DNA from: a virus
Lineage: Duplodnaviria; Caudoviricetes
IMG/VR virus record: IMGVR_UViG_3300027255_000165
Strand: one strand, 5' to 3'
DNA: 64,000 bases
A program made the position numbers and the translations under genes. Every line of letters starts with the position of its first letter. Position 1 is the stretch's first letter. Shown piece after piece: positions 1-30,284 of the stretch. The notes under the pieces were generated by a model that saw nothing but the letters and a program-made list of their open reading frames with translations, was not told the DNA's origin and did no database searches.

Positions 1-321
1 TTCAAGAGTCCAATAATACGTTGCAAGTGGGGCAACAAATTCTCTGATAACTCGAGTGTAGATCTCTTTCATACCAACGGCATCCATCAACATATCATTA
101 GTTGGATAGAATTCGTGGCGGCCAAGAGTCCATTCGCCTTGAGTTTCAGCTAGGATGATTAGTTCCTCACAGAACCGTTGAGTAAACAATGGGAACTCAG
201 CTACACTAGGTCCCAATTCATCAATCATCAGCTGATATTCGCCTCTAGCAATTGCCGGATTGATGTATTTGTCAACCCATGCTTGCCAATTTGAAGTGTC
301 TAAGATTTCTGCGTAGTTCAT
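1..321 (-). CDS. PLOD/procollagen lysyl-hydroxylase-like 2OG-Fe(II) dioxygenase (N-terminal part; runs off window start; not in ORF track)
   Basis: Manual translation from ATG at 321 (ATGA overlap with the upstream GT stop): MNYAEILDTSNWQAWVDKYINPAIARGEYQLMIDELGPSVAEFPLFTQRFCEELIILAETQGEWTLGRHEFYPTNDMLMDAVGMKEIYTRVIREFVAPLATYYWTLE. This aligns by eye with the start of the PLOD LH domain (W..KYI...FP+.+...C+EL+...E..G.W..GRH....PT.D+.M..VG). The catalytic HxD..H would lie beyond the window. Confidence 0.75.
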   Translation of the reverse strand, partial: MNYAEILDTSNWQAWVDKYINPAIARGEYQLMIDELGPSVAEFPLFTQRFCEELIILAETQGEWTLGRHEFYPTNDMLMDAVGMKEIYTRVIREFVAPLATYYWTLE

Positions 322-11000: not shown

Positions 11001-11334
11001 TTAGATTGTATTCATTTCCAAGAGCATCCGTAAATGCTACGTTTGGAGGAAGAAGGGTTTTATCTGCATCACGACCAAGCTGACCAGTAATATACTCGTG
11101 GAGGTGAGTCATCTCATTCTCAAGTGCCTTAACACCACGTGTAAGTTCATCAACGATTGGACCCATTGCAAAAAGCTTGGTGTAAGATTCATCAGCACCG
11201 TAAGCATTTGCAGTTTTACCTGCAGTTGTTCTTGTAGTGTCAATGAACTTAGCTTTTAGTAATTCTGCATCGGAATCCTTTAGAACGAATGTAGATCTAA
11301 ACGTTGCTAAGTCTTTAAGACTAATTCTAGACAT
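8083..11334 (-). CDS. collagen-like tail fibre with C-terminal peptidase S74 (intramolecular chaperone) domain
   Basis: About 600 aa of Gly-X-Y (GAQ/GAT/GQK/GTS, ~8650-10452); C-terminal SDQNLKENI...[22 protein letters not shown]+IP+LVEAIKEL. Confidence 0.9.
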
Positions 11335-11397: not shown

Positions 11398-14300
11398 TTA
11401 AAGTTTATTTATTCTATTTTCTAGATCCTTCACTCTAGAGTGTAGGTCCTTAACGATTTCGAATAAGTAAACCGTCATTTTGTCGTAATGCATCGAGATG
11501 AAGCCACCTTGACCGTCAGAAACTGCTAGTCTCTCGTCAAATGCAGCAACTTCTTCTGCAATGAAACCTAGGTCTTTCTTACCAGATTCTTTCCATGTGA
11601 ACTCTCTAGCATTCAGGCTTAGGAATTCCTCAGCGTCAAATGTTAGAGTTTCAACATCAGTCTTGAATCGTAGTGATGAACCTTGGAAACCAACTCCATT
11701 AGATACAAAATCCCACATCATTGGCATTGGAGCTTCCATATCTCCGTCGTTCACCATTGCGCTGTTAGAGAATTCGACCCAGGTCCCGTTCGGGTATGGA
11801 CCACCAGGTTGGCTGTAGAAACCAACATCACCGGCTTTCCATAGGAGCGTGTTACCGTCAAACGTTAGGTTAGTTTCACCGTTGATGGTTGTAGAACCAG
11901 TGGCTGTAAGAACTCTATTGTTGACGTTGTTTGTGATAGGAGCAGCTGCACCTTGAGCACCTTGAGCACCTGTAGCACCTTGAGCACCTGTAGCACCGCC
12001 AGCGCCTTGAGCACCTTGAGCACCTGTAGCACCAGTAGAACCTTTAGCACCACCAGCACCTTGAGCACCTTGTACACCTGAAGGAATAGTAAACTGGAAG
12101 TTAGCATTGGTAGCGTTACCAATGTTTAGAACTTCAACTGGAGTACCAGGTCCACCTGTTAGGGCTGGAGCAACATCGATTGTTGCTGCAGTACCTGTGT
12201 TACCTTGAGCGCCTTGAGCGCCTTGAGCACCTGTAGCGCCTTTTTGGCCTTGAGCACCTTGAGCACCTGTAGCACCTTGAGCACCTTGAGCACCGTTAAC
12301 ACCTGAAGAACCAGAAGTACCTGATGAACCAGAAGTACCATTGACACCTGCGGCACCTTGAGCACCTTGAGCACCTGTAGCGCCTTGAGCACCTTGAGCA
12401 CCTTGAGCACCAGTAGAGCCTTTAGCACCGTTAACACCTGAAGAACCAGATGTACCTGATGAACCAGAAGTACCTGATGAACCAGAAGTACCGGCAGCAC
12501 CTTGAGCACCTTGAGCACCTTGAGCACCTTGAGCACCTTGAGCACCAGTAGCGCCTTGAGCACCTGTAGCACCGCCAGCGCCTTGAGCACCTTGAGCACC
12601 GTTAACACCTGAAGAACCAGACGTGCCTGATGAACCAGATGAACCAGATGTACCTGAAGTACCAGCAGCGCCTTGAGCACCTTGAGCACCCGTAGCACCA
12701 GTCTGACCTTTTTGACCTTTTTGACCAACTGGAATTGTAAATTCAAAGTTGGCGTTTAAAGTATCACCTAGGTTTACAACTTGAGCAGGAGTACCTTCAG
12801 CCGATGTAACTGTTGGAGCAACGTTAACTTGGGCTGCAGTACCTACGTTACCTTGAGCACCTTGGGCACCTGTAGCACCTTGAGCACCTTGAGCACCAGT
12901 AGCACCTTTAGCACCGTTAACACCTGAAGAACCAGATGTACCTGATGAACCTGATGAACCTGATGCACCTTGAGCACCTTGAGCACCTTGAGCACCAGTA
13001 GAGCCTTTAGCACCGTTAACACCTGAAGAACCAGATGTACCTGATGAACCAGAAGTACCAGAAGTACCGTTTGTACCAGAAGTACCGTTTGTGCCTGATG
13101 AACCTGAAGTACCAGAAGTACCGTTTGTACCAGAAGTACCGTTTGTACCAGAAGTACCGTTTGTACCAGAAGTACCGCTTGTACCATTAGTACCAGAAGT
13201 ACCATTTGTACCTGATGAACCAGATGTACCAGAAGTACCGTTTGTACCAGAAGTACCGTTTGTACCATTTGTACCCGATGAGCCTGAAGTACCAGAAGTA
13301 CCTGCAGCTCCTTGAGCGCCTGTAGCACCTTTTTGACCTTTTTGACCAATTGGGATTGTGAATTCTAGGTTAGCGTTCAAAGGCGTTCCAATGTTTAGAA
13401 CTTCAACTGGAGTACCTTCTGCACCAGTAAGAGCTGGAGCAACATCGATTGTTGCTGCAGTACCGACTGCACCTTGAGCACCTTGAGCACCTTGAGCACC
13501 TTGAGCACCTTGAGCACCTTGAGCACCAGTAGCACCTTTAGCACCGTTAACACCTGAAGAACCAGATGTACCTGATGAACCTGATGAACCTGATGAACCT
13601 GATGAACCTGAAGTACCGTTTGTACCAGAAGTACCGTTTGTACCAGATGAACCTGAAGTACCTGAAGAACCCGATGAACCTGATGAACCAGAAGTACCAT
13701 TTGTACCAGAAGTACCATTTGTACCTGATGAACCAGATGAACCAGATGATCCTGAAGTACCATTTGTACCTGAAGTACCGTTAGTACCGTTAGTACCTGA
13801 AGAACCAGATGAACCAGATGAACCAGATGAGCCTGAAGTACCGTTAGTACCTGAAGAACCAGATGAACCAGAAGTACCGTTTAGATCAGCTACTAGGTTC
13901 CATGCGGCAGCTCCGTCCCATTGATAAACAAGACCGTCTGCTGTGAAACCTAGTTGACCAGGGAATGAACCTGTACCTAATTCTACAACTGAAGATGCTG
14001 ACTTAGCACCATCATGTCCAGAAGTACCCGATGTACCAGAAGTACCCGATGTACCAGATGAGCCTGAAGTACCTGAAGTACCGTTTGTACCTGATGAACC
14101 TGATGTTCCAGCAGTACCTGAAGTACCTGAAGTACCAGAAGAACCTGATGTACCGTTTGTACCTGATGTTCCAGAAGTACCTGAAGTACCTGATGTACCA
14201 GATGAACCAGATGAACCTGAAGTTCCAGATGTACCATTAGTACCTGATGTACCGTTAGTACCTGATGTACCAGAAGAACCTGATGTTCCAGCAGTACCTG

Positions 14301-17300
14301 AAGTACCTGATGTACCAGAAGAACCTGATGTTCCAGCAGTACCTGAAGTACCTGATGTACCAGAAGAACCTGATGTACCAGATGAACCAGATGAACCTGA
14401 AGTACCCGAGATACCGCCTGCACCTGCAACCGTGTATTTAATAATTAGCATGTTTCCGATCACTGGCACATAACCAGGATCTGGAGAGTTAATTCTAGCA
14501 ACAGTGAAGACTGCTTCGTTACCGACAATCAATTTAGCATTAATTGTGAACTCGTGTCTATCAGCACCGTTAAATTCGAACAATAGTTGTGAAGCAGCAC
14601 CCATCACATTATGAAGGGTTGTTCTGTCATTCATCCATCTATCGAAATTATTGATTCTAATTTCTGTTGCGTTGTATAGATCGCCTGTATTTGTGGTGAA
14701 GTTAGTTGCAGTTGCATCTCCTTGACCACCAAAGAAATAAGGCGCGTCAATTGTACCGTTAACACCTGATGTACCAGAAGTACCAGCAGTACCAGAAGTA
14801 CCGTTTGTACCGTTTGTACCAGAAGTGCCAGAAGTACCAGAAGTACCAGAAGTACCAGAAGTACCGTTTGTACCTGATGTACCGTTTGTACCTGAAGAAC
14901 CTGAAGTACCAGCAGTACCTGAAGAACCAGATGTACCAGAAGTACCGTTTGTACCTGATGTACCGTTTGTACCTGAAGAACCTGATGTACCAGAAGTACC
15001 AGAAGTACCGTTTGTACCTGAAGTACCGTTAGTACCTGAAGAACCTGAAGTACCGTTAGTACCTGAAGTACCGTCTGTACCATCTGTACCTGAAGAACCT
15101 GAAGTACCGTTTGTACCTGAAGAACCTGAAGTACCGTTTGTACCATTTGTACCTGAAGAACCTGAAGTACCGTTTGTACCATTTGTACCTGAAGAACCTG
15201 AAGTACCGTTTGTACCTGAAGAACCAGATGAACCCGAAGAACCCGAAGAACCCGAAGAACCTGAAGTACCGTTTGTACCTGAAGAACCAGATGAACCCGA
15301 AGAACCTGAAGAACCTGAAGTACCGTTTGTACCTGAAGAACCAGATGAACCCGAAGAACCTGAAGAACCTGAAGTACCGTTTGTACCTGAAGAACCCGAA
15401 GTACCGTTTGTACCTGAAGAACCCGAAGTACCGTTTGTACCATTTGTACCTGAAGAACCCGAAGTACCGTTTGTACCGTTTGTACCTGAAGAACCCGAAG
15501 TACCAGAAGTACCAGAAGTACCAGAAGTACCAGATGAACCAGAAGTACCAGAAGTACCAGATGAACCTGAAGAACCGCCAGTACCATTTGTACCAGATGA
15601 ACCTGAAGTACCTGAAGTGCCTGAAGTACCAGATGAACCTGAAGTACCAGATGAACCTGAAGTACCTGAAGTACCCGAAGTACCCGAAGTACCTGAAGTA
15701 CCAGATGAGCCTGAAGTACCTGAAGTGCCTGAAGTACCAGATGAACCTGAAGTACCAGATGAACCTGAAGTACCTGAAGTACCCGAAGTACCTGAAGTAC
15801 CTGAAGTACCAGATGAGCCTGAAGTTCCGTCTGTACCAGATGAGCCTGAAGTTCCGTCTGTACCAGATGAGCCTGAAGTTCCGTCTGTACCAGATGAACC
15901 TGAAGTTCCGTCTGTACCAGATGAACCTGAAGTACCTGAAGTACCTGAAGTACCTGAAGTACCTGATGTACCATCAGTGCCGTCTAAGCCTGAAGTACCA
16001 GATAGACCCGATGAACCAGAAGTACCATCTGTACCTGATGAACCAGAAGAACCTCCTTCACCAGTTATACCTGATGAACCAGAAGTACCAGAAGTACCAG
16101 AAGTACCAGATGTTCCTGAAGTACCGTTTGTACCTGATGAACCTGAAGTACCAGAAGTACCAGAAGTACCAGATGAACCTGAAGTACCAGAAGTACCAGA
16201 TGTTCCAGATGTACCGTCTGTGCCAGAAGTTCCAGAAGTACCAGAAGAACCTGGAAGACCAGCTTCACCTGAAATGTAACCTTTAAATGTCCATGCGCCG
16301 CCACCTGGAGTAGATCCTTCGTTAGCCGTACATGTCTCTTCGATCACTGTTTGTACCGCACCAGGGGCGTGGCTGTTAGTAACAATACCACCAGAATAGG
16401 TTGCGATTGTGTTAAGTGATGAAGTTGAATAAGTAGTCATCAACAGCACCTGTGCGTTAGCGTTGTAAGCGTCAACTTTCAATACATCAGCGTAATCAAT
16501 ATCTGCTTGAGTGTATGCGTCGTCGCTACCACCGTCAGGTGCGTCTGTAATAAGAACAATGTACTTAGCAACACCTTCTCTAAAGCCACCTACCATACCA
16601 GAGTTGATTACTCTATCAAGAGCAATACCTGCTGGTTCTGGAGTACCTTGACCATTACCTAGAGGGAAGTCAACTGTATTCATCTTGTTCAACTGTGAAG
16701 TGAACGAAGAGATGTTGTTTGACGAGAATGTCTCTAGAGCAGTGATGTGTGAAGATCTGCTAGCTGTGTAATTGTTTAGAATGTATCTCTGTGTAGATGG
16801 AAGAGCGTTGTAAGTTGCAGTTGCACCGTAAGTTGGTGTACCGTCAACTCCGTACTCGTCAAATGTTACAAGAGATAGTCTGTAGTTGTTATTAGATTCT
16901 GTCTCGATCGTTGAAGCGATAGCTGCAATTGAAGACTTAACGTTGTTGATTGCTCCACCCATTGAACCGGTGTAGTCAACCAAGAACACAACGTCCATAC
17001 CTTGATCACATGGTGCAGGGTTACCAGGACCATAGCCTGACCATTCCCAAATACCACCGTCACAGTCAAAATAAAGTTGACCAACGAATGAACCTGTTAC
17101 GTCACCATTTGGATCGCCGTAACATCCTGATTTAGCGCCATCATAACCTGATGAACCTGAAGTACCAGATGTACCTGATGTACCTGATGTACCATCTGTA
17201 CCTGATGAACCTGAAGTACCTGAAGTACCCGAAGTACCTGAAGTACCTGATGTACCTGATGTACCATCTGTACCTGATGAACCAGAGGTACCAGAAGTAC

Positions 17301-18228
17301 CAGAAGTACCAGAAGTACCAGAAGTACCAGAAGTACCAGATGAACCTGAAGAACCGCCAGTACCATTTGTACCAGATGAACCTGAAGTACCTGAAGTGCC
17401 TGAAGTACCAGATGAACCTGAAGTACCAGATGAACCTGAAGTACCTGAAGTACCCGAAGTACCCGAAGTACCTGAAGTACCAGATGAGCCTGAAGTACCT
17501 GAAGTGCCTGAAGTACCAGATGAACCTGAAGTACCAGATGAACCTGAAGTACCTGAAGTACCCGAAGTACCTGAAGTACCTGAAGTACCAGATGAGCCTG
17601 AAGTTCCGTCTGTACCAGATGAGCCTGAAGTTCCGTCTGTACCAGATGAGCCTGAAGTTCCGTCTGTACCAGATGAACCTGAAGTTCCGTCTGTACCAGA
17701 TGAACCCGAAGTACCTGAAGTACCTGAAGTACCTGAAGTACCTGATGTACCATCTGTACCTGATGAACCTGAAGTACCAGATGAACCGGAACTACCGTCC
17801 GTACCATCTAGACCCGAAGTTCCAGATAGACCTGAAGTACCAGATGAACCTGAAGAACCTGAAGTGCCTGAAGTACCCGAAGTACCTGATGAACCGGAAC
17901 TACCGTCCGTACCATCGGTACCGTCTGTACCTGATGAACCAGATGAGCCTGAAGAACCTGAAGTACCCGAAGTACCTGAAGAACCAGATGTACCTGAAGA
18001 TCCAGATGTACCTGAAGTTCCTGAAGTACCAGCGGTACCAGAAGTACCAGAAGTACCAGACGAACCAGACGTACCTGAAGAACCAGAAGTACCAGACGAG
18101 CCAGACGTACCTGATGAACCCGAGGTACCCGAAGTTCCGGCTGTGCCGGAAGTACCTGAAGTACCGTTAGTACCTGAAGAACCAGAAGAACCTGAGGTAC
18201 CTGTCGTTTTAATTAAAGGAATTGCCAT
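11398..18228 (-). CDS. giant (2276 aa) Ser/Thr-rich Gly-X-Y fibre protein with vWA domain, collagen segments and S74 chaperone
   Basis: Long [12 protein letters not shown] runs; vWA with MIDAS ([18 protein letters not shown], ~16330-16998); three ATIDVAP..GTPVEV.NIG..NA.F.FTIP modules; C-terminal [25 protein letters not shown] (S74). Confidence 0.9.
15540..15975. repeat. ~430-bp near-identical direct repeat, copy A (copy B at ~17319-17754)
   Basis: Sequences compared by eye; the unique anchor CCGCCA is at 15575 and 17354 (offset 1779 = 593 codons), and rare synonymous variants are shared. Confidence 0.8.
17319..17754. repeat. ~430-bp near-identical direct repeat, copy B
   Basis: See copy A; the two copies flank the vWA module. 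Confidence 0.8.
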
Positions 18229-18258
18229 TTTATAATAAATGTCTGTTTTGGTTTAGGT

Positions 18259-19017
18259 TTAATCTAGAGCTGATTTGTTGTAGATGATGTCAATAATGTC
18301 ATCTGCAGTCAAATCAAATCCTGAAAGTTCGCCGTTCCAGTATAATTCGTCGCCGGCTTCGATGTCAGCAATCAGCTTAGCTGTTAGACCTCCGTCATTG
18401 GAGAAGTAACAGTCTGATGTTCTAACACCGTTTCCTTCTTGAACACCAACACCGTTGACTAGAATGTCAACCGCTGAATCCAAGAAAGGAGTGTAATTAA
18501 TTGTAATGCCCGTCGCTGAATAATCACCGTTGGTTGGTAGAGGGTTTTGATCTCTTTGGTACACTTCGACTCCTGTGTCGACTGGTGCGCCACCAACTGA
18601 TGGTCTCCAAGGAAGGACATGTGCTGTCGTTTCGGTAATTGCCTGCATGATTGGGTTACTGTATGCATACGCGTCGTTTGTTGTGAACAATACAGGATTA
18701 CCCGTTCCTGAATCGTCAACAACATAAAACGCACCTGGGACAAGATTCCAAGTAGCAACTGTTACCTTACCAACCTGAACACCGACAAAAGTGTCGGCGG
18801 ATGGAGTTGATTCAATAACAATTCTACCTAGTTTGTCCTCAATAGATGCATCAGCAAGGACCCATGTACCACCGTCGAAGGCAACAACCTGACCTGCTGA
18901 GAAGCCATGGCCAACCTGTGTAAAGGTTGACTTTAGCGATCCAGACGTGATCGAAAGAATGATAGCGTCAAGAATCTCTTGCAAGCCATCAATCTGTTTG
19001 ATTTTGATTTGAGACAT
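18259..19017 (-). CDS. putative fibre/baseplate-associated structural protein (shares a C-terminal module with 25529..27490)
   Basis: First gene of the fibre operon; C-terminal TGI.I.YTPF.DS.V.+.+NGV...G.G....DCYF..AKLI.DI..GD.L.WN...D.I..IY. Confidence 0.6.
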   Translation of the reverse strand: MSQIKIKQIDGLQEILDAIILSITSGSLKSTFTQVGHGFSAGQVVAFDGGTWVLADASIEDKLGRIVIESTPSADTFVGVQVGKVTVATWNLVPGAFYVVDDSGTGNPVLFTTNDAYAYSNPIMQAITETTAHVLPWRPSVGGAPVDTGVEVYQRDQNPLPTNGDYSATGITINYTPFLDSAVDILVNGVGVQEGNGVRTSDCYFSNDGGLTAKLIADIEAGDELYWNGELSGFDLTADDIIDIIYNKSALD

Positions 19018-19155
19018 GTCTTACTAGATTGTTTATTTGAGGTTTATGTTTGAGGGTTTTCTCACTATGGTATATATACACAAAGATTGGGTTAAAGTTT
19101 ACATACTGGCTGATTTTTAATCATTTTAATCAAAGACTTAATCTACGTAAATTGC

Positions 19156-20361
19156 ATGAAAAAGCTAGGCTCTCAGATAATAGATTTCAAACGAATGATT
19201 AGACAATATGAGTTCTTCATTGAGGACTTGAATGATCTAAAGGAAATACAATCTAATATTAATTCTGATTTTAGCTCCGCGATTGCAGGATTAAAAAGGC
19301 CAGATTTATTTGATAGTAAGGTAACTTCAGATGCAGCTGAACAGGCCAATCAAGCGAAAGATTCAGAAGAAGAGCCTGAAAGAGATCCTTCATTTAAGAA
19401 ACTTTTTAGAAAAATGGTGGTTAAGTGTCACCCTGACAGACTATCACCTGATACTTCTGATAGCGAAAGATTAAGACTTAAGCAGTTATATGAGAGCAGT
19501 ATTAAAGCTAATGATGATTATAACTGGGCTCTTTTAATTACTACTGCAATTAAGTTGGAGATTGAACTCGGTGAAGAGTATTATGATCATGTTAATGAAT
19601 TAAAACATGAAAGTGATAAAGTCCAAAAAGAAATTGAAGGTATTCAGGGTTCAGTTGCATGGACTTGGTATCACGCTAGTGAAGAAGAAAAGCCCAAAAT
19701 AATGCAACAGTATGTTAAGCACATGGAAAAATCGCTAGGATTAGATCGTAAAAAGGTTTTAATCTTAGGCGTAGGACATCCTAGAACTGGGACAGGTTTT
19801 ACAGCTTCTATATTAAGTAGCTGGGGTTTAAGAATAGGTCACGAAAAACTTATGGAGGATGGAATTGTAGCGTGGCAACATGTAATTGAAAATGGGCCAT
19901 GGCCGTGGATTAAGCACACTGATAAGTTAAAACCTGAAATCTTAATTTATAACGTCAGAAACCCTAAGGATTCTATTCCATCAATTGTTTTCACTGAAGA
20001 CGTTAGGCCCGAATCTCTTAAATTTAGAATTAGAAGAGGCAGGGTATCTAGATCATCGAATCCCGTTGAACAGGCTATTCATTCTATCTTAAGATGGGAC
20101 GAATTAATAATTAAAATGGGACCCAAGTTTACATATCGGGTTGAAGATCAAGCCATAGATTTGTTCAATTTCTTAAAAGATAAGAATCTAAACGTAAAAT
20201 GGGTTTCTCCACAGAGCGTGGTTAATGATCGAAAACATCAAGGATTTGAAAGTTTAAAGAATGAACTTCAATCAGTTTCGTCAGAGCTACAAAAGAAAAT
20301 GAACGCCTATTGTCAAAAATATGGATATGATCCCGTATTTTTAAACGTCCCAGAGGCCTGA
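19156..20361 (+). CDS. J-domain (DnaJ-like, HPD) / P-loop sulfotransferase-like fusion protein
   Basis: FKKLFRKMVVKCHPDR (J-domain helix II-HPD); C-terminal ILGVGHPRTGTGF (5'-PSB) and YNVRNPKDSIPS (3'-PB). Confidence 0.7.
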   Translation: MKKLGSQIIDFKRMIRQYEFFIEDLNDLKEIQSNINSDFSSAIAGLKRPDLFDSKVTSDAAEQANQAKDSEEEPERDPSFKKLFRKMVVKCHPDRLSPDTSDSERLRLKQLYESSIKANDDYNWALLITTAIKLEIELGEEYYDHVNELKHESDKVQKEIEGIQGSVAWTWYHASEEEKPKIMQQYVKHMEKSLGLDRKKVLILGVGHPRTGTGFTASILSSWGLRIGHEKLMEDGIVAWQHVIENGPWPWIKHTDKLKPEILIYNVRNPKDSIPSIVFTEDVRPESLKFRIRRGRVSRSSNPVEQAIHSILRWDELIIKMGPKFTYRVEDQAIDLFNFLKDKNLNVKWVSPQSVVNDRKHQGFESLKNELQSVSSELQKKMNAYCQKYGYDPVFLNVPEA

Positions 20362-21471
20362 ATAGTGACATCTCAAATACGTTGGGCTTGAGTAGACGTG
20401 GCCAGTTGGATATTTAGATCTTAGCTTTCTACCGAATAGCGTATCTTCACTAACACCTCCTTTAGAATCTTCCCATTTAACTTCACAACTTGACATGTGA
20501 GCTAGCAACCAAGGTGTATTAACTACAAAACCTTCCTTAACCCTTGATTCAACAAATTTATAATCTTTAGAAAAAGGAGAGTTTAAGACTCTAGCATTTT
20601 CATAAGATTTTAAGACTTCTCCGGCAGCAGCGGATGAAGTTATCATTGCTTCATGATCAAACCATGCTGAATTTACCATCCAATCTGAATTTGGATTTGC
20701 ACGATGTTGAAGAACTAGCATTTCACAAAAATACGGAAGCATAAAATCATCTGAGTCACAATATGTAATAATATCACCGGTTGCGATAGTTACGCCCACT
20801 GCTCTTGGAATTCCTCTATAGATCTTTTCTCCAGTTTGATCTTTTTCATACATATTGCCATATCCAGATTTATCTACATAGGCATATTTGATGCGATTAA
20901 TTCCTTGAATTTCATTGATCCATAAATTATGAGTTACACTACATCCATCAGAAACGATAATCAACTCACAATTTTCATAAGTCTGTTTAATGAAACTTGC
21001 AATTGCTCTTTTAAACTTAAGCTCAGAATTTATACGAGAACCTGGATAATCTCCAAGATAAGTCTGCATTATAATTGAGATTTTAGGATAATCAATAGCT
21101 TTTCTTGATTCAACCTTTGGAGCGGGTGTTAGAGCTGGATCGGGTTTTTTCATGATAGGTCTTGTAAAAGTTTTAACATTTATCGTTGGCTGCGATGTTG
21201 GCTCTATTTTAGTTTGAGTTGGTTCTTGCCTTGGAAGTGTTTTTTCTTTTTCTATTTGTTCCTTTGCTTGTTCAAATCTACTTTTCTTTGGAGGCGCAGG
21301 TTCCACTTTCTTATCTTCGATCTTTGGCTTGGATTCAACCTTTTTAATTTCGGGTCTAGGTCTTAGAACTGGAGAAGGAGGAATAGGCTTTTGAATCTCC
21401 TGAGTTTTTTCAGATTCAACCGGTTTTGGAGTGTTATTAAACTCGTTTAATAGATCTAAATAGTTTTTCAC
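20341..21471 (-). CDS. glycosyltransferase family 2 with Pro/Lys/Glu-rich N-terminal extension
   Basis: KISIIMQTY..ELIIVSDGC..GDIITYCDSDD (DxD). Confidence 0.85.
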   Translation of the reverse strand: MKNYLDLLNEFNNTPKPVESEKTQEIQKPIPPSPVLRPRPEIKKVESKPKIEDKKVEPAPPKKSRFEQAKEQIEKEKTLPRQEPTQTKIEPTSQPTINVKTFTRPIMKKPDPALTPAPKVESRKAIDYPKISIIMQTYLGDYPGSRINSELKFKRAIASFIKQTYENCELIIVSDGCSVTHNLWINEIQGINRIKYAYVDKSGYGNMYEKDQTGEKIYRGIPRAVGVTIATGDIITYCDSDDFMLPYFCEMLVLQHRANPNSDWMVNSAWFDHEAMITSSAAAGEVLKSYENARVLNSPFSKDYKFVESRVKEGFVVNTPWLLAHMSSCEVKWEDSKGGVSEDTLFGRKLRSKYPTGHVYSSPTYLRCHYSGLWDV

Positions 21472-21473
21472 GG

Positions 21474-22229
21474 TTATACGTCATGATTTTTCATTTTAGA
21501 GTGGCAGACTATATATGTATACTCTTTGAACATATAAGGTTTGTATTCTTTTTTCAATTCCTCAATAAATACTTTGTCTTCACCGCCCATTGGATCATCG
21601 ATACTGCTCCATTTTGAATTTACATTTCTGGAATGGACGACAAGATGTGTGCCTGAAGGATCTTCAAATGTTAACTTGTATAACATTAACTTGCCATACA
21701 ATGGCAGGTCTACAATGTAAATTTTGCCGGCCTTAGCATTGTTCTCAATAGTTTGCATATCCAACTTAAAGCTTGAAGTTATTTCAATTATTCCAGTTTT
21801 TTCAAACTTATAGGGTTCATCAATGATGATGGGTACAGATCCGCCGGTATTAAGCAAGAACTTTGCACCATTAGATTCAGTAATTGCTTTTGAAATTGAG
21901 CTTAAATGAGTAGGCATAATAACATCGTCTGCATCTAAATATGCAATATAATCACCTGTTGAATAATAAATGCCTAATTGTCTAATCTTTCCAGGCCATC
22001 TAGATTTTGATTTCTCAACCCAAATTAAATTAACATTATCGTATTTTGAAAAATGCTTTTCATATAGGCTCTTAGTTATGTCACATCCATCTGCTACTAT
22101 TACCAATTCTTTATTTTCATAATCTTGTTCTAAAAAAGAATTTACAGCTCTTTTGAATTTTGGAATAGAATTGGTTCTAGCATTTGGATATTCATCCAAG
22201 TAGCTCATCATGATAACGCTGATTTTCAT
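21474..22229 (-). CDS. glycosyltransferase family 2
   Basis: KISVIMMSY..ELVIVADGC..GDYIAYLDADD (DxD). Confidence 0.9.
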   Translation of the reverse strand: MKISVIMMSYLDEYPNARTNSIPKFKRAVNSFLEQDYENKELVIVADGCDITKSLYEKHFSKYDNVNLIWVEKSKSRWPGKIRQLGIYYSTGDYIAYLDADDVIMPTHLSSISKAITESNGAKFLLNTGGSVPIIIDEPYKFEKTGIIEITSSFKLDMQTIENNAKAGKIYIVDLPLYGKLMLYKLTFEDPSGTHLVVHSRNVNSKWSSIDDPMGGEDKVFIEELKKEYKPYMFKEYTYIVCHSKMKNHDV

Positions 22230-23420
22230 TTAGAAATATGTATTAGTTTGCCAATTGTAATTGTAACTTAATTGATGTTTATCCTTTTCAAAGAGATTTT
22301 CGATTAACTTCTCGTAAGTATCTAATAGATCTTGGTTTTTGACAGTGTATCTGTCTAGTACCTTTTGATTTCTTAGCTTATACTCTTCTAGATTATTATC
22401 GTGTTCTTCAATTGCATATTTTAATTGATTGTATCCCTCATTGACATTGAAATCTGAATAGTAGTACCCTGCATCCTTGATCATATCAGCATTGTGAACT
22501 AGTGGAAATCCAAAGTACATCACGTCTAGATAAGAATAATTTAGTGGGTTTTCCCACTGATGTGAAACTATAACGTCAGCTCCATTAGCTAAGTAGTGAG
22601 TAACGGGGTATCGTGATGTGAAACTAATCTTTGGACCTTGTGAGCCATTGACAATATCCATAGTCGCAATCATTGACTTAAAGTATCCATTCTTAAGAAG
22701 TCTTTGTCCACTCGCCACATTCATTTTCTTAAATTCTACACCTTCTCTAAGTGCTTTCTCTGCAATCATAATAGGTATCATTGCATATTTGACTACGTTT
22801 AAGTTAGGTTCAAATACTGATAGAAGCTTTTCAGAGTTTTCTTTACCTGGAATGTAGTATGGCGTTTTTGTCTTTTTAATTCTTGCCCTAAGCACCTCAA
22901 TATCTAAAAACATAGGATCCCATACAAAAGGAACTGGGAAAACGTTTTCATTTCTAAATGCAACCTTATAGTATTCATGATTTTGATAGCCCTGTTGGGG
23001 TACGTACCATAATTGATCGGCTCCTGGATCCCATGGTGCTTTACCCAGATCATTACCTTCTTTAAAAATAGAACGCTCCATATCAATTACATAAGAATTA
23101 CCGCACATGTATTTGACAACCTTCTTATTTGGTCCTGATTTTCTGAATTGATCTAAAATCTCAGTTGGAAAAGAAGTTCCAAGTGTTATTAAAATATCCA
23201 CGGTTGGATATACTTTCCAATAATCTTCGATTGGAAATTTATTAACGTCCCATGAAACCTTTGATAGATCTGTTACCTTTCGGCTAGTATCGAGAATTAC
23301 AACTTCATATTTGCCTATTTTCATTAGAGCATTTGCTAAGAGCAGGGCATTCAATTTAATACCGTTGATCCATATACTTTCGTAATCGGATTGTAGACCG
23401 ATTGTGATTCCTATCTTCAT
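22230..23420 (-). CDS. DUF2827-like protein (predicted glycosyltransferase-like)
   Basis: MKIGIT..SIW.NGI..N..L..; FEPN..VVK...IP++I.E; SHQWEN.LNY.Y.DV+Y.G.PLVHN...Y.Y..F (recalled family motifs; not searched). Confidence 0.55.
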   Translation of the reverse strand: MKIGITIGLQSDYESIWINGIKLNALLLANALMKIGKYEVVILDTSRKVTDLSKVSWDVNKFPIEDYWKVYPTVDILITLGTSFPTEILDQFRKSGPNKKVVKYMCGNSYVIDMERSIFKEGNDLGKAPWDPGADQLWYVPQQGYQNHEYYKVAFRNENVFPVPFVWDPMFLDIEVLRARIKKTKTPYYIPGKENSEKLLSVFEPNLNVVKYAMIPIMIAEKALREGVEFKKMNVASGQRLLKNGYFKSMIATMDIVNGSQGPKISFTSRYPVTHYLANGADVIVSHQWENPLNYSYLDVMYFGFPLVHNADMIKDAGYYYSDFNVNEGYNQLKYAIEEHDNNLEEYKLRNQKVLDRYTVKNQDLLDTYEKLIENLFEKDKHQLSYNYNWQTNTYF

Positions 23421-23467
23421 CTATATTGTAAGTGTTTTTACTGGCTTTGTTTTATTTATTCGTCAAT

Positions 23468-23496
23468 AAAAAAGGGCTTCCCTTGCGGGAAGCCCT
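23468..23496 (-). terminator. intrinsic terminator
   Basis: - strand AGGGCTTCCC-GCAA-GGGAAGCCCT-TTTTT. Confidence 0.85.
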
Positions 23497-23530
23497 CTGT
23501 GAATTAAATCACTTAAAGGTTGTTATTCAA

Positions 23531-25393
23531 TTAAGCTTGAACACCAACGATTCTGATGATGTCAGAAGCTTCGATAGCATAAACTAGGTTTAGATCGAAA
23601 TCATTAGGATTCATTTGAGTAAATGCTACTCTTAGACCGTTAACGTAAACTTCTGTATCGAAAGAACCTTCTGCGAATAGAACTGGAGATGAAATAACAA
23701 CTGGACCAGCAGCAGCTGTAATACCAGTAACTTCAACTTCAGCGTATGTATCACCGAAAATTCTTAAATTAGTCTCAGCTGTTAGAGCAAGCTCTAGAGA
23801 ATCAACTGAATCGATGATAGCTAGAACGTCGCCGTTAGTAGCTTCGATTTCGTTCGCTAGAGCAAGCTCTAGAGAGTCAATTGACAAGTTAATACCTGCA
23901 ACTTCAGCGTTAGTAGTTGAGATTTCAGCTGCTAGAGCAAGCTCTAGAGAGTCAACTGAATCAACTAGAGCGCCTGAACCGTTGTTCAATGCAAGTTCTA
24001 GAGAGTCGATAGAAGCGCCGATTGCAGTAACGTCGTCGTTAGTAGCTTCGATTTCGCCAGTTAGAGCAGATTCTAGAGAATCAACTGAAGCGTCTAGAGA
24101 TGTTAGGTAGTTGTTAACGTAAAGCTCTCTTGAGATGAATGAGTTATCATTCACAAGGTCAAGACCCTGTACGTAAGAAACAACCTCTGCGAATTGGTCT
24201 AGATCAACTGTAGAACCGTCAAGAATTGCGTTAATTCTTTCAGATTCGATAGAAACAGCAACTTCTAGAGAATCAACAGATGCGCCTAGGAAACCTTCAG
24301 CAGCGCCTGCTCTTCCAGACTCAGTGTTGATAGCTGCGTAAAGTGCAGTAACATCAGTGTTAGTAGCTTCGATTTCGTTCGCTAGAGCAAGCTCTAGAGA
24401 GTCAACAGAAGCACCTAGGAAACCTTCAGCAGCGCCAGCTCTTCCTTCTTCAGCATCGATAGCTGCGTAAAGTGCAGTAACATCAGTGTTAGTAGCTTCG
24501 ATTTCGTTCGCTAGAGCAAGCTCTAGAGAATCAACAGATGCGCCTAGGAAACCTTCAGCAGCGATAGCTCTTTCTTCTTCAGCTGTAATTAGAGATACGT
24601 GCTCAAGGTGGTGAGTGTTCATCTCATCATTGTGCTTCTCTTCAAGAGAATTGATAGCCTGTTGTAGGTCTGCGTCAACACCTTCTAGAGAATCAACAGA
24701 AGCGATAAGAGCTGAAACGTCAGTACCAGCCTTGTTTTCTAGAGAGTCGATAGAAGCATTGATTGCAGTAACGTCGCCGTTAGTAGCTTCGATTTCGCCA
24801 GCTAGAGCAGATTCTAGAGAATCAACTGAAGAGTCTAGTCTGTTTAGTCTACCATCAACGAAAGTCTCTCTTGAGATGAATGAGTTATCATTCACAAGGT
24901 CAAGACCGTTTACGTAAGAAACAACTTCTGCAAATTGGTCTAGATCAACTGTAGAACCGTCAAGAATCGCATTGATTCTTTCAGATTCGATAGAAACAGC
25001 AACTTCTAGAGAATCAACAGATGCGCCTAGGAAACCTTCAGCAGCGATAGCTCTTCCAGACTCAGCGGTGATAAGACTAACGTGCTCATCGTGGTGAGTG
25101 TTCATCTCAGTTTCTCTTGTGTCAGCTTCAGCAGATAGAGCTGCGTAAAGTTCAGTAACATCAGTGTTAGTAGCCTCAATCTCAGCAGATAGAGCAGTTT
25201 CTAGAGAATCGACAGATGCAGATAGAGCCGAGTCAGCGGCGCCTCTTGCAGCGCTTTCGTCTACTAGATCAGATTCTACTGTGTCGAATCTTGCGTCAAC
25301 GTCGAATGCGTTAGGGATTTCAGTTGTCTTAACAGTTGCCCAGTTAACCTGTGCTAAGAAATCTGAAATTTGTTTTGAACGAATTTGTGCCAT
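23531..25393 (-). CDS. acidic coiled-coil repeat fibre/whisker-like protein (13 x S[V/I]DSLE)
   Basis: Start reassigned to MAQIRSKQI (ATG 25393) because the track start at 25459 lies upstream of the GATATATA promoter motif; internal duplications. Confidence 0.7.
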   Translation of the reverse strand: MAQIRSKQISDFLAQVNWATVKTTEIPNAFDVDARFDTVESDLVDESAARGAADSALSASVDSLETALSAEIEATNTDVTELYAALSAEADTRETEMNTHHDEHVSLITAESGRAIAAEGFLGASVDSLEVAVSIESERINAILDGSTVDLDQFAEVVSYVNGLDLVNDNSFISRETFVDGRLNRLDSSVDSLESALAGEIEATNGDVTAINASIDSLENKAGTDVSALIASVDSLEGVDADLQQAINSLEEKHNDEMNTHHLEHVSLITAEEERAIAAEGFLGASVDSLELALANEIEATNTDVTALYAAIDAEEGRAGAAEGFLGASVDSLELALANEIEATNTDVTALYAAINTESGRAGAAEGFLGASVDSLEVAVSIESERINAILDGSTVDLDQFAEVVSYVQGLDLVNDNSFISRELYVNNYLTSLDASVDSLESALTGEIEATNDDVTAIGASIDSLELALNNGSGALVDSVDSLELALAAEISTTNAEVAGINLSIDSLELALANEIEATNGDVLAIIDSVDSLELALTAETNLRIFGDTYAEVEVTGITAAAGPVVISSPVLFAEGSFDTEVYVNGLRVAFTQMNPNDFDLNLVYAIEASDIIRIVGVQA

Positions 25394-25528: not shown

Positions 25529-27490
25529 TTACAGGTCGTAAGAAGAAGCCTGGTAAATAACGTCAATATCATCTGATGGATCTAGTCCATAACCTGCATA
25601 GGTAGGGTTCCAGATCAATACGTCGCCGGATGCAATGTCTTTAATCAGCTTGGCGACCATTGCGTTTCCATCAGTATTGTAACCTGAAAGGGTAGGATCT
25701 GTAAAGTAACAATCATCTTCGTTGTCTCCATCTCCGATGTTAACTTCAACACCGTTAATTTTAACAATTACATCGCTATCCTGGAATGGAGTGTAGTCGA
25801 TATTGATTCCTGTCACATAGTGATCGTGTGTTGTGGTTGAAGCCACAACCTGGTTTTTATCAACTGATACATTAACTCCCGTTTCTGGTTCGTCATTAAC
25901 GCCTTCTAGCATTAGAAGAACTGCAGAAGAACCCGCTGATGAAGATGTGATACCGTTTTGGTTGATATATGTTCCATTACCGGTGATCATTAGATCTCCA
26001 CCATCTTGTCTTGTTAAAATCAAGAAGTCAGCTCCGTTTGCAGGGGCTGAAGCCGCGATACCAAAACCTGATAGGAATGTATCTCCTAGAACGTCAACGT
26101 CAGTTGTTGTGATAGAGATTGAAGCCGTTGATGTAATAGCTTGAATCTTCAATTGTCCAAAGGTAGATGAGTAAGCTCCGTCTCCTGGTATGATTGCGAT
26201 TGCTTCAAGATCTAGGCCATCAGCTTGAAAAGCAGCGTTAAAAAGATCAGCTGCGATCTGAGCATTAACCAATAGGTATTCCGGTGCATCTGGATATGCG
26301 ATTGGAGAAGTTACTGTTGTTTGGTCAAATAGAACTGTTGTTGAATTTGTACCATCGCTGATTGTTACATCAATCTGGGTGTAACTTGCGCCTGTGTTAT
26401 CTGATAGCGCTAGGATTGATACACCATTAGTTGCAACAGATGCGTTAGAAAGCAAAGATGAAAACTCTGATTCTTTAGATGCTGTGATATGGTGATCATC
26501 AGTTGATACGTTAATTAGGTCAACAAAATCTTGAACTGTTGAAACTTCATCTGAAGAACCATCAAACACTGGAATCTCATTAAAGATAATCATGTCTGAA
26601 GAACCCGGTAAGTAGTTTGAAATAGTAGCTCTAACTTCAGTTTGAACTGGATCTTTAACTTGTAGGAAAAGTGCTTTAGCTCCTCTTGAAGCAGTTGTTG
26701 TGATTCCACCAGGAACTGTAGGGTCCATGTAGTAGATTTCACCAGCATTACCATTAAGAAGTTCAGGGTTTGAGTGGTTATCAATTAACGTGTTAAATGG
26801 CTTAATGTAAACTACAGTGTCATTCATTGTCTTTTCAAGAACCAAACCAACTGGAACTTCTGCAGCACCCGGAGTTCCAAGCTTTACAAACTCGCCTTCA
26901 GCTGAAACTGTAATAATGTCGCCTGAATTATAACCTGTTTGAGAAGTTGAAAATTCAAATCTGTATCTTTCTGTTTCTTCTTCAGCTGCAAAGCGACCTT
27001 GGATCTTATCCATTGACGCTGGAGTTGGAAAGAAAGATTGAACTGCCCCAGTAGTTAGAAGAGGCACATTGTTATCTGAAACTTCAAAGAAAGCTAGCTT
27101 AGAATTTGTTGTAAGATAATTTGAAGCGTAAAGTTTATACGCAATCATATCTACGTCTTTTGCGATAAAAGAAATAGACGTTTCGGATTTAGTTTCGATT
27201 GATTCAATCTTTAGAACAATCTGACCATTTTCACTTGTAACCCAATCTCCAGACTTAATGTCCAATCCATTGTACTCTTTAACGTTACCTGAACGAGAAT
27301 TAGCAGTACCGATGGATTGCGAAGTTACTTGATCAACTGTGATTTCAAAGGTGTAATATGCACCGGTTGCTTTAATGCCAGTTGAATCCTCATAAGGATA
27401 CTGATCTAAACCGTTAATAGATGTGATTCTACCGGATAGAAATAGGGGTGGATTGGTTGGATTGTAGATTGCCATAGTCTTAGAATACAA
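25529..27490 (-). CDS. putative structural protein (653 aa)
   Basis: Thr/Ser/Asp-rich beta-type composition; C-terminal module shared with 18259..19017. Confidence 0.6.
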   Translation of the reverse strand: MYSKTMAIYNPTNPPLFLSGRITSINGLDQYPYEDSTGIKATGAYYTFEITVDQVTSQSIGTANSRSGNVKEYNGLDIKSGDWVTSENGQIVLKIESIETKSETSISFIAKDVDMIAYKLYASNYLTTNSKLAFFEVSDNNVPLLTTGAVQSFFPTPASMDKIQGRFAAEEETERYRFEFSTSQTGYNSGDIITVSAEGEFVKLGTPGAAEVPVGLVLEKTMNDTVVYIKPFNTLIDNHSNPELLNGNAGEIYYMDPTVPGGITTTASRGAKALFLQVKDPVQTEVRATISNYLPGSSDMIIFNEIPVFDGSSDEVSTVQDFVDLINVSTDDHHITASKESEFSSLLSNASVATNGVSILALSDNTGASYTQIDVTISDGTNSTTVLFDQTTVTSPIAYPDAPEYLLVNAQIAADLFNAAFQADGLDLEAIAIIPGDGAYSSTFGQLKIQAITSTASISITTTDVDVLGDTFLSGFGIAASAPANGADFLILTRQDGGDLMITGNGTYINQNGITSSSAGSSAVLLMLEGVNDEPETGVNVSVDKNQVVASTTTHDHYVTGINIDYTPFQDSDVIVKINGVEVNIGDGDNEDDCYFTDPTLSGYNTDGNAMVAKLIKDIASGDVLIWNPTYAGYGLDPSDDIDVIYQASSYDL

Positions 27491-30284
27491 ATATTACGTA
27501 TGCGTGAGCGTTTCTTGCAGAAGAACCCAAACCTGATTTATTACCGTATTTAATAAAGTCTTTTCTTACGTCAAGTGTCATTGATGTTGTAAATGCACCA
27601 TTTAAGAAGTTTGGAACAAGTTGATTTGTGCCAGACGTAGAGAAGTTTGCAGCTGCAGAATCAATTTTAGCTAGTGCAGCGTCAACTCTGTAGGCGTGAA
27701 CTTCATACTTGTAAGTTGCAGGATCCCATGCAAGAACCTGAATTGCAAGTGGTGGATTTGATTCATTGAATGAAACTGTAGCTGTATAAATTGCCGTTGA
27801 AGTATTAACTGAAACTGAGTCAACTGATGCGTTTGCAGTCAAGAATCCAGTTGCAGAAACAAACTTGTTATCTGTAGTGTTATTAACTAGGTGGTTTGAT
27901 GAATCATATTCAAGTCTTAGTAGATACTTGTTAGTTCCTGAACCAGAACCTCCTGAGATAGTAGACCACTGTACGTTATATGGGTTAGAGTCAATTTTAA
28001 CAAGCGCTTGACCTGATGTACCACCTGAAGGAATTCCAAGACCATTAGTACCTGAAGAACCTGACGTACCATCTGTACCTGAAGAACCTGAAGTACCATT
28101 AGTACCCGAAGAACCAGAAGTGCCGTCCGTGCCAGATGAACCTGAAGTACCTGAAGAACCCGAAGTACCATTGTCACCTGAAGTACCCGATGAACCTGAA
28201 GTACCATCAGTTCCTGAAGAACCTGAAGTACCGTCTGTGCCTGATGATCCTGAAGTACCATCAGTTCCTGAAGAACCCGAAGTACCATTGTCACCTGAAG
28301 TACCTGAAGAACCCGAAGTACCATTGTCACCTGAAGTACCCGATGAACCTGAAGTACCATCAGTTCCTGAAGAACCTGAAGTACCGTCCGTGCCTGATGA
28401 TCCTGAAGTACCATCAGTTCCTGAAGAACCCGAAGTACCATTGTCACCTGAAGTACCTGAAGAACCCGAAGTACCATTGTCACCTGAAGTACCTGAAGAA
28501 CCAGAAGTGCCATCAGTACCTGATGAACCTGAAGTGCCGTCTGTACCTGAAGAACCCGATGTACCGTCTGTGCCAGATGAACCTGATGTGCCGTCCGTGC
28601 CTGATGAACCTGAAGTACCATTATCTCCTGAAGTACCTGAAGAACCCGAAGTACCGTCTGTACCTGAAGAACCCGAAGTACCGTCTGTACCTGAAGAACC
28701 CGAAGTACCGTCTGTACCTGAAGAACCCGAAGTACCGTCTGTACCTGAAGAACCCGAAGTACCGTCTGTACCTGAAGAACCCGAAGTACCGTCTGTACCT
28801 GAAGAACCCGAAGTACCGTCTGTACCTGAAGAACCCGAAGTACCATCAGTACCTGATGAACCTGAAGATCCACTTGCTAATGAAGAAGCACTAATTACAT
28901 AAGGGTCTGCAACTGTACCAGAACCCGAAACATCAATGTTAGTTCCAGCCTGTGTAATACCTCCAACGCCATCTGTACCAGATGAACCAGAAGTACCATC
29001 AGAACCTGAAGTACCATCAGTGCCTGAAGAACCTGAAGTACCATCAGTACCTGAAGAACCAGATGAGCCTGAAGTACCATCAGTACCTGAAGAACCTGAA
29101 GTACCATCAGAACCAGATGAGCCTGAAGTACCATCAGAACCTGAAGAACCAGATGAGCCTGAAGTACCATCAGTACCTGAAGAGCCAGATGAGCCTGAAG
29201 TACCATCAGTACCTGAAGAACCAGATGAACCGTCAGAACCTATTACACCATCTACACCTGCAGGACCCTGTGGACCCGCTACGCCATCAGTACCTGATGA
29301 ACCTGAAGTACCGTCTGTACCTGAAGAACCTGAAGTGCCGTCTGATCCTGCAGTTCCTGAACCAGAACCTGCTCCACCAAACATATCAATGTCATAACTA
29401 ATGTACTGTCCTACTTCCCATACGTATGGTGAAGCAACTGGAGAGTATGAGCTATCTTCGTATGTAACTAGAACTTCAGTGTAATCATTATCGTTATCGT
29501 CTCCTCCACCGGCTTCAGCGTTAATTCTATTATAACCTGTAATTTCGTAGATAGCGTATTGGTTTGGAGAACCTGCGTTTGTAACAACGATGTTAGCGTT
29601 GACGTTAGAACCGCCCGGGTCTCTCTTTATCAGATAATTTTCAAGCAGTACGTTTCTAACGTTGTTCTGATCTAAGTTGTAAAACTTGATTGAAGTTACC
29701 AGTGAAGGATCAGAGGCATTGAACGTGACTGATTTCAGTGATGGGTTTGAGCCATCAACTGCAGATACTTGGTATCTAACGTAAGGGCTTGAAGCGTTAC
29801 TTGAACCTGAAAGTGAAGTTGATCCTGAACCCGATCCTGAACCAGAACCTGAACCTGAACCAGTACCTGTAATACTTGATCCGCTAACTGTACCAATCAT
29901 CAACTGTGGAATAATGTAAGTCTTCGCTGATGGATAGTAGTTAGAGTATGTGATTGTTACTTGAGCATAAAGGTTACCATTGGCCAGATTTGCGCTCTGG
30001 TTTGGTGTGATCGAGAAAGAGATGTAACCCTGCGTTGCTGTTGCTGGGTTACCCATTGTTAGAAGATCAGTAATACCCGAAATAACTGGGTTTGAGTACT
30101 GATACATCTTTTGTCCTAATGAATTGTACAGAGATACCGTAATTGAATCGGCATCAGCGGCATTCAACTGATTGTTGATGTAGTCTTTGTACAAGATTAG
30201 CTCGACGGTCGATGGTTGGCCAGCAACCACTGAAAGGTTACTGCCGATATAAACCATTATGTCATCCTTTGAAACGTAAGGCAT
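27480..30284 (-). CDS. Ser/Thr-rich Gly-X-Y repeat virion protein (934 aa)
   Basis: GTDGTSGSS / GDNGTSGSS repeats (~28040-29370) between globular N- and C-terminal domains. Confidence 0.8.
28639..28827. repeat. perfect 27-bp tandem repeat x7 (encodes GTDGTSGSS)
   Basis: Unit GAAGAACCCGAAGTACCGTCTGTACCT starts at 28639, 28666, 28693, 28720, 28747, 28774, 28801, plus a partial copy. Confidence 0.85.

Follow-up and report, generated by a model that had tools for sequence, protein, structure and literature searches.

A predicted J-domain–sulfotransferase fusion in a putative fibre-modification cassette of an uncultured marine myovirus

The fusion gene

The 64,000-nucleotide stretch of viral DNA analysed here (IMG/VR record IMGVR_UViG_3300027255_000165, hereafter the window) is from a marine myovirus that has not been cultured, includes tail sheath and large terminase genes, and carries at 19156–20361, on the + strand, a gene for a 401-residue protein (P0001) that joins a J-like helical domain to a sulfotransferase domain in one frame. 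The open reading frame (ORF) listing and translation place − strand genes on both sides of it, and most of the other + strand ORFs of at least 100 residues are nested within − strand genes. An earlier reading, made from the letters of the window without database searches (the sequence-only reading), had named a set of motifs in this protein, and translation locates all of them in this + strand ORF: KCHPDR at residues 90–95, GHPRTGTG at 207–214 and VRNPKDSIPS at 267–276. These motifs are not there by chance: HPD and GHPR[TS]GT recur in each of 119 full-length relatives and the third motif in most of them, and the HPD tripeptide is invariant down to 24–27% identity. The features of the gene, and of the window around it, are collected in Table 1.

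Table 1. Coordinates of the fusion gene, its domains and motifs, and other features of the window (PSB, 5'-phosphosulfate-binding; 3'-PB, 3'-phosphate-binding; E, expectation value)
Feature	Position	Strand	Evidence or remarks
J–sulfotransferase gene, whole coding sequence, 401 aa (P0001)	19156–20361	+	J-like helical domain and sulfotransferase domain in one frame
Long N-terminal helix, residues 1–45	19156–19290	+	K12, R13, Y18, E19, D24 nearly invariant; model helix 2–45, pLDDT 94–97 over 11–40
J-domain-like core, residues 78–135	19387–19560	+	Predicted helix II 78–91, HPD loop, helix III 102–120, short helix 124–133
HPD tripeptide, H92 P93 D94	19429–19437	+	Invariant in alignments A1 and A3
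Helical C-terminal part of N-domain, residues 140–193	19573–19734	+	Conserved S-x-A-W-x-W-Y-H motif; alignments and model
Compact sulfotransferase-fold domain, residues 199–395	19750–20340	+	Model, structural matches, family Pfam matches
PSB loop GHPRTGTG, residues 207–214	19774–19797	+	R210 invariant; aligned to SULT7A1 PKSGT loop (5x2b)
H229-E230, candidate catalytic base	19840–19845	+	Invariant in 62 C-domains; role suggested by position ~20 residues past PSB Arg
3'-PB motif R268-N-P-K-D-S-I-P-S276	19957–19983	+	R, P, S nearly invariant; aligned to SULT7A1 RNPKDTAVS
252-aa protein, no known family	18259–19017	−	Divergent from fusion gene; conserved cassette neighbour
GT2 glycosyltransferase	20341–21471	−	Converges on fusion gene, 21-nt overlap; Pfam PF00535 E 4.3e-9
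GT2 glycosyltransferase, second	21474–22229	−	Pfam PF00535 E 2.1e-15
DUF2827 protein (putative protein glycosyltransferase)	22230–23420	−	Pfam PF10933 E 6.1e-89
2276-aa collagen-like Gly-Ser/Thr fibre	11398–18228	−	vWA insert, S74 intramolecular-chaperone end; Pfam Collagen 9e-200, Peptidase_S74, VWA; candidate client and substrate
1083-aa collagen-like fibre with S74 end	8083–11334	−	Pfam Collagen 2e-79, Peptidase_S74 4e-18
Another collagen-like protein	27480–30284		
Second, unrelated sulfotransferase-like gene, 234 aa	5608–6312	−	Pfam Sulfotransfer_2 E 4.4e-7, 30.7 bits against a cut-off of 22; fibre region
GT4/GT1 gene	318–1331		Pfam
Tail sheath gene	41635–43929		
Large terminase gene	43989–45818		

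The C-terminal sulfotransferase domain

The C-terminus had been read as a sulfotransferase-like domain with GxPRTGT and RNPxD motifs, and family Pfam matches, profile comparison, an AlphaFold model and fold searches all bear this out. In an alignment of 62 C-domains R210, H229, E230, G236 and W240 are invariant, with G207, H208, P209, G212, T213, R268, P270 and S276 nearly so, and members of this set match Sulfotransfer_3 (23/62, best E 3e-9), Sulfotransfer_4 (14/62) and Sulfotransfer_1 (5/62). The C-domain of P0001 gave no match in single-sequence searches of Pfam, PHROGs, NCBIfam and the PDB. Aligned with mouse SULT7A1 bound to 3'-phosphoadenosine 5'-phosphate (5x2b), the family profile pairs GHPRtGT with YPKSGT, and vRnPldaipS with VRNPKDTAVS.

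The AlphaFold model of the domain (pLDDT 95.3, pTM 0.91) sets P-R210-T-G-T-G after the strand at its residues 4–11. The top 49 Foldseek matches in the PDB are all sulfotransferases, as are the top 50 from VIA-align (Z 10.9–8.3), which are led by TPST2 (3ap2_B, Z 10.9, root-mean-square deviation (rmsd) 4.0, 174 aligned residues), TPST1 (Z 10.8) and the sulfotransferase domains of CurM and OLS (both Z 10.6); Cpz8 (Z 9.4) and SgdX2 (Z 9.1) come next, followed by cytosolic SULTs and heparan sulfate sulfotransferases. The domain is accordingly placed by these searches outside the alternative raised along with the sequence-only reading, that of a kinase or some other P-loop fold. A kinase or Walker P-loop assignment was rejected in its own right, there being no GxxxxGK[ST] motif in the domain, and kinases appearing only at the bottom of the lists of fold matches. 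From its motifs and their alignment, the predicted sulfotransferase would use 3'-phosphoadenosine 5'-phosphosulfate (PAPS) as donor.

The same domain is found in longer proteins, fused to GT2, GT25, GT-D-like, S-adenosylmethionine (SAM)-methyltransferase, Caps_synth/Gly_transf_sug and TPR modules, and with such glycosyltransferase and capsule-type partners it fits a glycan-tailoring enzyme. GT25 is the CAZy family of the animal collagen galactosyltransferases. P0176, P0180 and other long proteins, giant viruses included, are examples in which the compact domain stands with GT25, GT2, GT-D, methyltransferase or TPR modules, and its closest structural counterpart among viruses is a 1202-aa Megaviridae ‘capsular polysaccharide synthesis protein’ (E 3.6e-15, TMq 0.78). 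Stand-alone forms also occur. One, annotated as hypothetical, is found at 42.6% identity in the Kyanoviridae phage C48C1 (OQ984149; locus L001, 8007–8594), a cultured lineage; another lies on a 149-kb fragment (L056; IMG/VR 3300033273_000392) that also encodes a full-length Hsp70/DnaK (G004:C1:107324–109108, E 1e-263).

It could be argued that the C-domain is a pseudo-sulfotransferase, a non-catalytic module that binds a nucleotide, or else a ligand bearing sulfate or a glycan. It is short, at ~200 residues, compared with most sulfotransferases, and some divergent two-domain relatives retain the domain having lost its PAPS-binding motifs. We nonetheless consider this very unlikely, as the PSB loop is intact here and in all 119 closer relatives, 116 of them also retaining the 3'-PB motif and 114 the His-Glu pair, and as active compact sulfotransferases of ~195–212 residues (Cpz8 and SgdX2) are among the best structural matches.

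The N-terminal J-like domain

Residues 1–195 are modelled by AlphaFold (pLDDT 89.9) as helices at 2–45, 55–66, 78–91, 102–120, 124–133, 140–164, 167–172 and 179–193, and on this model they form a J core embedded in a larger helical domain. The helix at 55–66, which is of low confidence (pLDDT ~60–65), could stand in for helix I of canonical J-domains. H92-P93-D94 falls between the predicted helices 78–91 and 102–120. It is invariant together with L83 in alignments A1 and A3; K81 is invariant in A1, and K82, F84, R85, K86 (A1), Y112 and A118 are at least 90% conserved.

A profile built from 29 N-domains, fused and stand-alone, was compared with the PDB, and J-domain proteins account for 41 of the 45 chains listed, with E values of 1.2e-5 for DNAJB9, 2.9e-5 for Sec63, 8.8e-5 for DNAJA1 and 0.004 for E. 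coli DnaJ, and running overall to 1e-2. The Pfam DnaJ family (PF00226) is matched by 27 of the 29 members (best E 9e-6), and hhalign against residues 1–80 of E. coli DnaJ aligns residues 79–118 with DnaJ 20–60 (E 8.3e-5). In the register given by hhalign and BLASTP, K81, K82, F84, R85, K86 and K90 correspond to R22, K23, Y25, K26, R27 and K31 of E. coli DnaJ, and H92-P-D94, R95 and Y112 to H33-P-D35, R36 and Y54. In canonical J-domains the basic face of helix II and the HPD loop make the contacts with DnaK.

Shape searches were of less help. The ESM-Atlas search was the better one: there the domain finds its own viral family, two viral clusters of ~204 aa, a viral cluster of 186 aa with Pfam DnaJ in 64% of its members (TM 0.67–0.70 over 170 residues), and then cellular DnaJ proteins. 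A Foldseek search of the PDB with the whole N-domain gave long-helix and coiled-coil matches only (E > 0.1), and searches of Pfam, PHROGs, NCBIfam and the PDB with P0001 alone gave only weak J-domain matches. A complex predicted from E. coli DnaK (1–605), ATP and the N-domain alignment scored 0.55, against 0.43 for a control in which DnaK was replaced, and counts neither for nor against DnaK binding.

Taken at the level of profiles, the N-domain is a divergent but genuine J-domain relative, and its predicted core may activate Hsp70. The sequence-only reading of a J-domain with an HPD loop holds to that extent, with the tripeptide invariant; it does not hold for P0001 alone, which scores below the Pfam threshold, nor for helix I, which was not detected.

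These same shortfalls, together with the setting of the core within a helical domain of ~195 residues and the generic helical bundles returned by Foldseek and VIA-align, would suit a J-like scaffold that does not activate Hsp70 and keeps its HPD for structural reasons, serving instead in dimerisation or as a dock for fibre chains or for partners from the cassette, with the long helices 2–45 and 140–164, for instance, making the contacts. We judge this quite unlikely. In J-like proteins without Hsp70-activating function, Pam16/Tim16 for instance, the HPD is typically absent, which counts against a scaffold, whereas here the HPD is absolutely invariant and the basic helix II residues that in canonical J-domains contact DnaK are conserved position by position.

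Conservation of the fusion

The fusion is conserved. A word-indexed search of JGI, ENA, Logan and Tara assemblies recovered at least 162 homologues, none of them named, nearly all of 380–415 aa and covering 95–99% of the query. The two-domain build is shared by at least 119 full-length relatives at 37–100% identity; every one of the 119 has HPD and GHPR[TS]GT, 116 have the 3'-PB-type R..P.....S and 114 the His-Glu pair. Searched exhaustively with HMMER, 1.8 billion representatives gave 1124 matches, and the best 150 of these comprise eight complete two-domain proteins, about 20 stand-alone N-domains of ~180–200 aa, and C-domains, either alone (~200 aa) or inside longer proteins. The same architecture is carried by IMG/VR contigs of 149–176 kb and by a JGI contig of 196 kb, and the stretch containing the gene is complete in 18 marine metagenome runs, among which the source sample may be included. 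Among GenBank phages, megablast of 18000–24000 gave no match, and the sole tblastn match was the stand-alone C-domain of C48C1.

Local tblastn over 56 fetched loci found both halves in one frame in 12. In the J-only and sulfotransferase-only loci of this set, the other half was never found within the 6–10 kb flanks.

The presence of both halves as separate genes elsewhere invites the explanation that an assembly error or frameshift has joined two neighbouring genes, in which case relatives would not show the fusion. Relatives do show it: the frame runs uninterrupted through more than 100 distinct sequences in the JGI, ENA, Logan and Tara assemblies, long phage contigs carry it independently, the stretch recurs complete in the 18 runs, and where either half stands alone the other is not adjacent. 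Such an artefact, the probability of which we regard as negligible, is excluded, and the search of other phages for the same fusion, proposed as a check with the sequence-only reading, yielded well over 100 relatives.

Surroundings of the gene and the putative fibre-modification cassette

A divergent, AT-rich spacer of 138 bp (19018–19155) separates the fusion gene from the 252-aa gene. It contains no obvious Shine–Dalgarno-like sequence before the ATG of the fusion gene, which may perhaps reflect a host that does not rely on such sequences, such as a member of the Bacteroidota. A promoter and terminator scan of 18900–20600 gave scores no better than shuffles. The fusion gene is not covered by the contigs of four salt-marsh and estuary RNA runs, missing cover not being proof of silence; the 252-aa gene has contigs ~95–97% alike in salt-marsh and estuary metatranscriptome assemblies, from four RNA runs.

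The placement of the gene next to collagen genes, claimed from the sequence alone, was confirmed by Pfam, which identifies Collagen/S74 fibres at 8083–11334 and 11398–18228. The larger of the two contains 22 Pfam collagen stretches and a vWA domain at residues 412–575, and its shadow frames give rise to long spurious ORFs on both strands.

No near relative of the window was found among GenBank phages. The IMG/VR relatives with the fusion are fragments of 149–176 kb rated 49–59% complete, from which jumbo phages of roughly 300 kb may be inferred. In relatives at ~50–57% identity the gene order is fibre, a 252/254-aa protein, the J–sulfotransferase gene on the opposite strand, one or more GT2 genes, and DUF2827. 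The flanks differ in a relative at 40% identity (L002, the JGI 3300035145 contig of 196 kb), which has 955-aa and 795-aa proteins of no known family upstream, and downstream a GT_PLOD-like gene (a weak match), HtrL_YibB, a cytidylyltransferase, a hexapeptide acyltransferase and two DUF2827 genes; a 2OG-Fe(II) oxygenase lies ~7 kb upstream. These additional enzymes (L002, 1–16000) suggest a more elaborate fibre glycan and possible hydroxylation.

DUF2827 was found near the gene in eight of eight fused loci and in three of three J-only loci with enough flank (L010, L021 and L052), and in most of these GT2, the 252-aa protein or collagen/S74 fibres are present as well. Among sulfotransferase-only loci, cassette neighbours such as DUF2827 were found in none of 22. 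With the J-like module constant and the sulfotransferase-only loci outside the cassette, the sulfotransferase is best seen as an add-on, acquired in one lineage.

DUF2827 is itself a constant of the phage fibre cassette (22230–23420 in the window; also in L002, L003, L005, L010 and L052), sometimes in two copies, and its presence in jumbo-phage fibre clusters seems to be unreported. In bacteria the family is linked to trimeric autotransporter adhesins, another class of long trimeric fibre, for which a role as cytoplasmic glycosyltransferase has been put forward (bioRxiv 10.64898/2026.01.22.700529).

Proposed function

The reading we favour, and to which we give an even chance, is that of a cytoplasmic bifunctional fibre-modification enzyme, in which a sulfotransferase is tethered to an Hsp70 co-chaperone module. 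DnaK binding, the use of PAPS, the substrate and the order of events are all put forward as proposals in what follows. On ATP-bound host DnaK/Hsp70 the J core would dock by way of its HPD loop and the basic side of helix II, setting off ATP hydrolysis; the module could thereby bring Hsp70 to very long nascent fibre chains, or hand chains over to Hsp70 or to the enzymes of the cassette. Clamped by DnaK, the long, repetitive, Ser/Thr-rich chains would be left unfolded and accessible, and the DUF2827 and GT2 enzymes could add sugars to them. The fused enzyme would then add sulfate from PAPS to the glycan, the protein itself being a less likely acceptor, with the donor held by R210 of the PSB loop and by R268 and S276, and with H229/E230 as the likely base. 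Trimerisation, driven by the C-terminal S74 chaperone, would follow glycosylation and sulfation. The full scheme, in which DnaK keeps the giant collagen-like fibres unfolded for glycosylation and then sulfation by way of a co-chaperone fused to a modifying enzyme, is put forward tentatively, as a possibility that we consider rather doubtful.

Coupling of fibre folding to modification had been suggested by the sequence-only reading. Genomic context lends it support, in that loci without the sulfotransferase still have the J-like module together with the collagen-fibre/GT2/DUF2827 cassette; the coupling itself we still infer.

Several observations weigh against a fibre-modifying co-chaperone enzyme. 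The fusion gene lies on the strand opposite to every structural and glycosyltransferase gene, which implies a separate transcription unit and possibly another time of expression. In three partial genomes with the fusion, which are fragments 49–59% complete, no Hsp70 or adenosine 5'-phosphosulfate (APS) kinase gene was found. P0001 alone scores 14.5 bits (whole protein) or 16.2 bits (N-domain) against a Pfam DnaJ cut-off of 27.8; a canonical helix I was not detected in the N-domain, the profile and hhalign alignments covering helices II–III only; and VIA-align of residues 76–136 gave generic three-helix bundles (Z up to 7.6), with no solved J-domain among the top 50. The C-terminal half of P0001 (residues 196–401) has no Pfam sulfotransferase match of its own, and the class of substrate cannot be read from structure, as the matches to TPST (protein) and to CurM and Cpz8 (small molecule) lie within about one Z unit. 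Finally, four divergent two-domain relatives (P0134, P0136, P0146 and P0152) keep the HPD and are without the PSB and 3'-PB motifs, which indicates that the core function conserved in the wider family is something other than sulfation; these four may be pseudo-enzymes.

The separate, opposite transcription unit, seen in every relative, would also suit a gene of host takeover, in which the J module hijacks host DnaK for a purpose unconnected with fibres, in the way that Rki of phage RB43 acts for sigma-32, and the enzyme modifies a host envelope polysaccharide, lipopolysaccharide (LPS) or a metabolite, for instance to block superinfection, its position in the fibre cluster being historical. Rki is a precedent for a phage J-domain protein aimed at host regulation (PMC3486835). 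The C-domain, moreover, occurs alone in many phages outside fibre cassettes, the C48C1 copy lying among small hypothetical genes near nucleotide-metabolism genes, and is fused elsewhere to LPS- or capsule-type enzymes such as GT25 and Caps_synth. Against this, the slot of the J-like gene between the fibre genes and GT2/DUF2827 is kept down to ~33–40% identity, with or without the sulfotransferase, a constancy difficult to account for if the gene had no functional link with the cassette, and we regard host takeover as unlikely.

Novelty and significance

Both halves of the fusion belong to known superfamilies, in subfamilies for which there is no Pfam or PHROG model. Two large unannotated families can now be defined, and named in annotation: one is a J-like domain of phages, ~190 aa long, the other a compact sulfotransferase, ~200 aa long, of phages and giant viruses. 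Viral sulfotransferases as such have been annotated in phages and giant viruses. Our search found no paper on a J-domain–sulfotransferase fusion or on a sulfated phage fibre, its coverage of the literature being incomplete and thus not proof of absence, and as far as it reaches the fusion is, as first supposed, without a described precedent.

Hsp70 owes its specificity to J-domain proteins, which direct it to individual clients or locations. Should the favoured reading of a sulfotransferase tethered to a co-chaperone be true, the joined J module and sulfotransferase of this fibre-glycosylation cassette would be a small, naturally occurring case of protein modification coupled to a chaperone. 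It would also suggest that abundant marine jumbo phages bear collagen-like fibres that are both glycosylated and sulfated, a surface chemistry that to our knowledge has not been described for phage virions, and one that could be relevant to how phages stick to hosts and particles in a sea rich in sulfated polysaccharides. The full scheme of DnaK-held fibres, if true, would make these the first sulfated fibres known on phage virions, and the system an analogue, in a bacterial virus, of the chaperone-coupled modification of collagen in animals. Each half of the protein is small and soluble-looking, and so suited to direct assays.

Comparison with known systems

The best structural matches of the C-domain are the tyrosylprotein sulfotransferases TPST1 and TPST2 (3ap2, 5wri) and the CurM and OLS domains (4gbm, 4gox), at Z 10.9–10.6 over ~174 of 206 residues with an rmsd of ~4 Å, and an Arg-type PSB loop is common to all of them. 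In TPST2 (R78/E99) an acidic base lies ~20 residues downstream of the PSB Arg, a spacing like that of the candidate base in the phage domain. The phage domain differs from these enzymes in being ~70–90 residues shorter and without their substrate-binding inserts, and identity is only 14–17%. Closer in size are Cpz8 (9kf1/9kf2) and SgdX2 (8y9p), which at ~195–212 aa have the same minimal core (Z 9.1–9.4, rmsd 3.0–3.4 over 145–149 residues); their substrates, in contrast, are small-molecule natural products, they have no chaperone module, and their gene context is another.

Physical ties between an Hsp70 co-chaperone or folding factor and an enzyme that modifies an unfolded client are found in ERdj5/DNAJC10 and in the P3H1–CRTAP–CypB complex. 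Animal collagen is modified only before the triple helix forms, by enzymes held in complexes with folding factors. These systems differ from the phage fusion in belonging to the eukaryotic endoplasmic reticulum, in carrying out disulfide reduction or prolyl hydroxylation, and in having no sulfotransferase, and homology to the phage protein is by way of the J-domain alone.

Among phages, Rki (ORF057w) of the T4-like phage RB43 was the first functional phage-encoded J-domain protein (PMC3486835), and resembles the fusion in being phage-encoded, in combining an HPD-bearing J-domain with a C-terminal domain of other function, and in its presumed use of host DnaK. The J-domain of Rki is canonical and closely resembles the one in E. 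coli DnaJ, and the C-terminal part is no enzyme and stabilises sigma-32, whereas the protein described here has a divergent J core without detectable helix I, set in a 195-residue helical domain, fused to a sulfotransferase and encoded in a fibre cassette. DnaJ and DnaK homologues are also carried by the large aquatic ‘moraphages’, for which the recruitment of DnaK to virion protein assembly has been discussed (PMC12619734); those are full homologues recently acquired from Flavobacteriales, unlike the divergent J core of the present gene, which is fused to a modifying enzyme.

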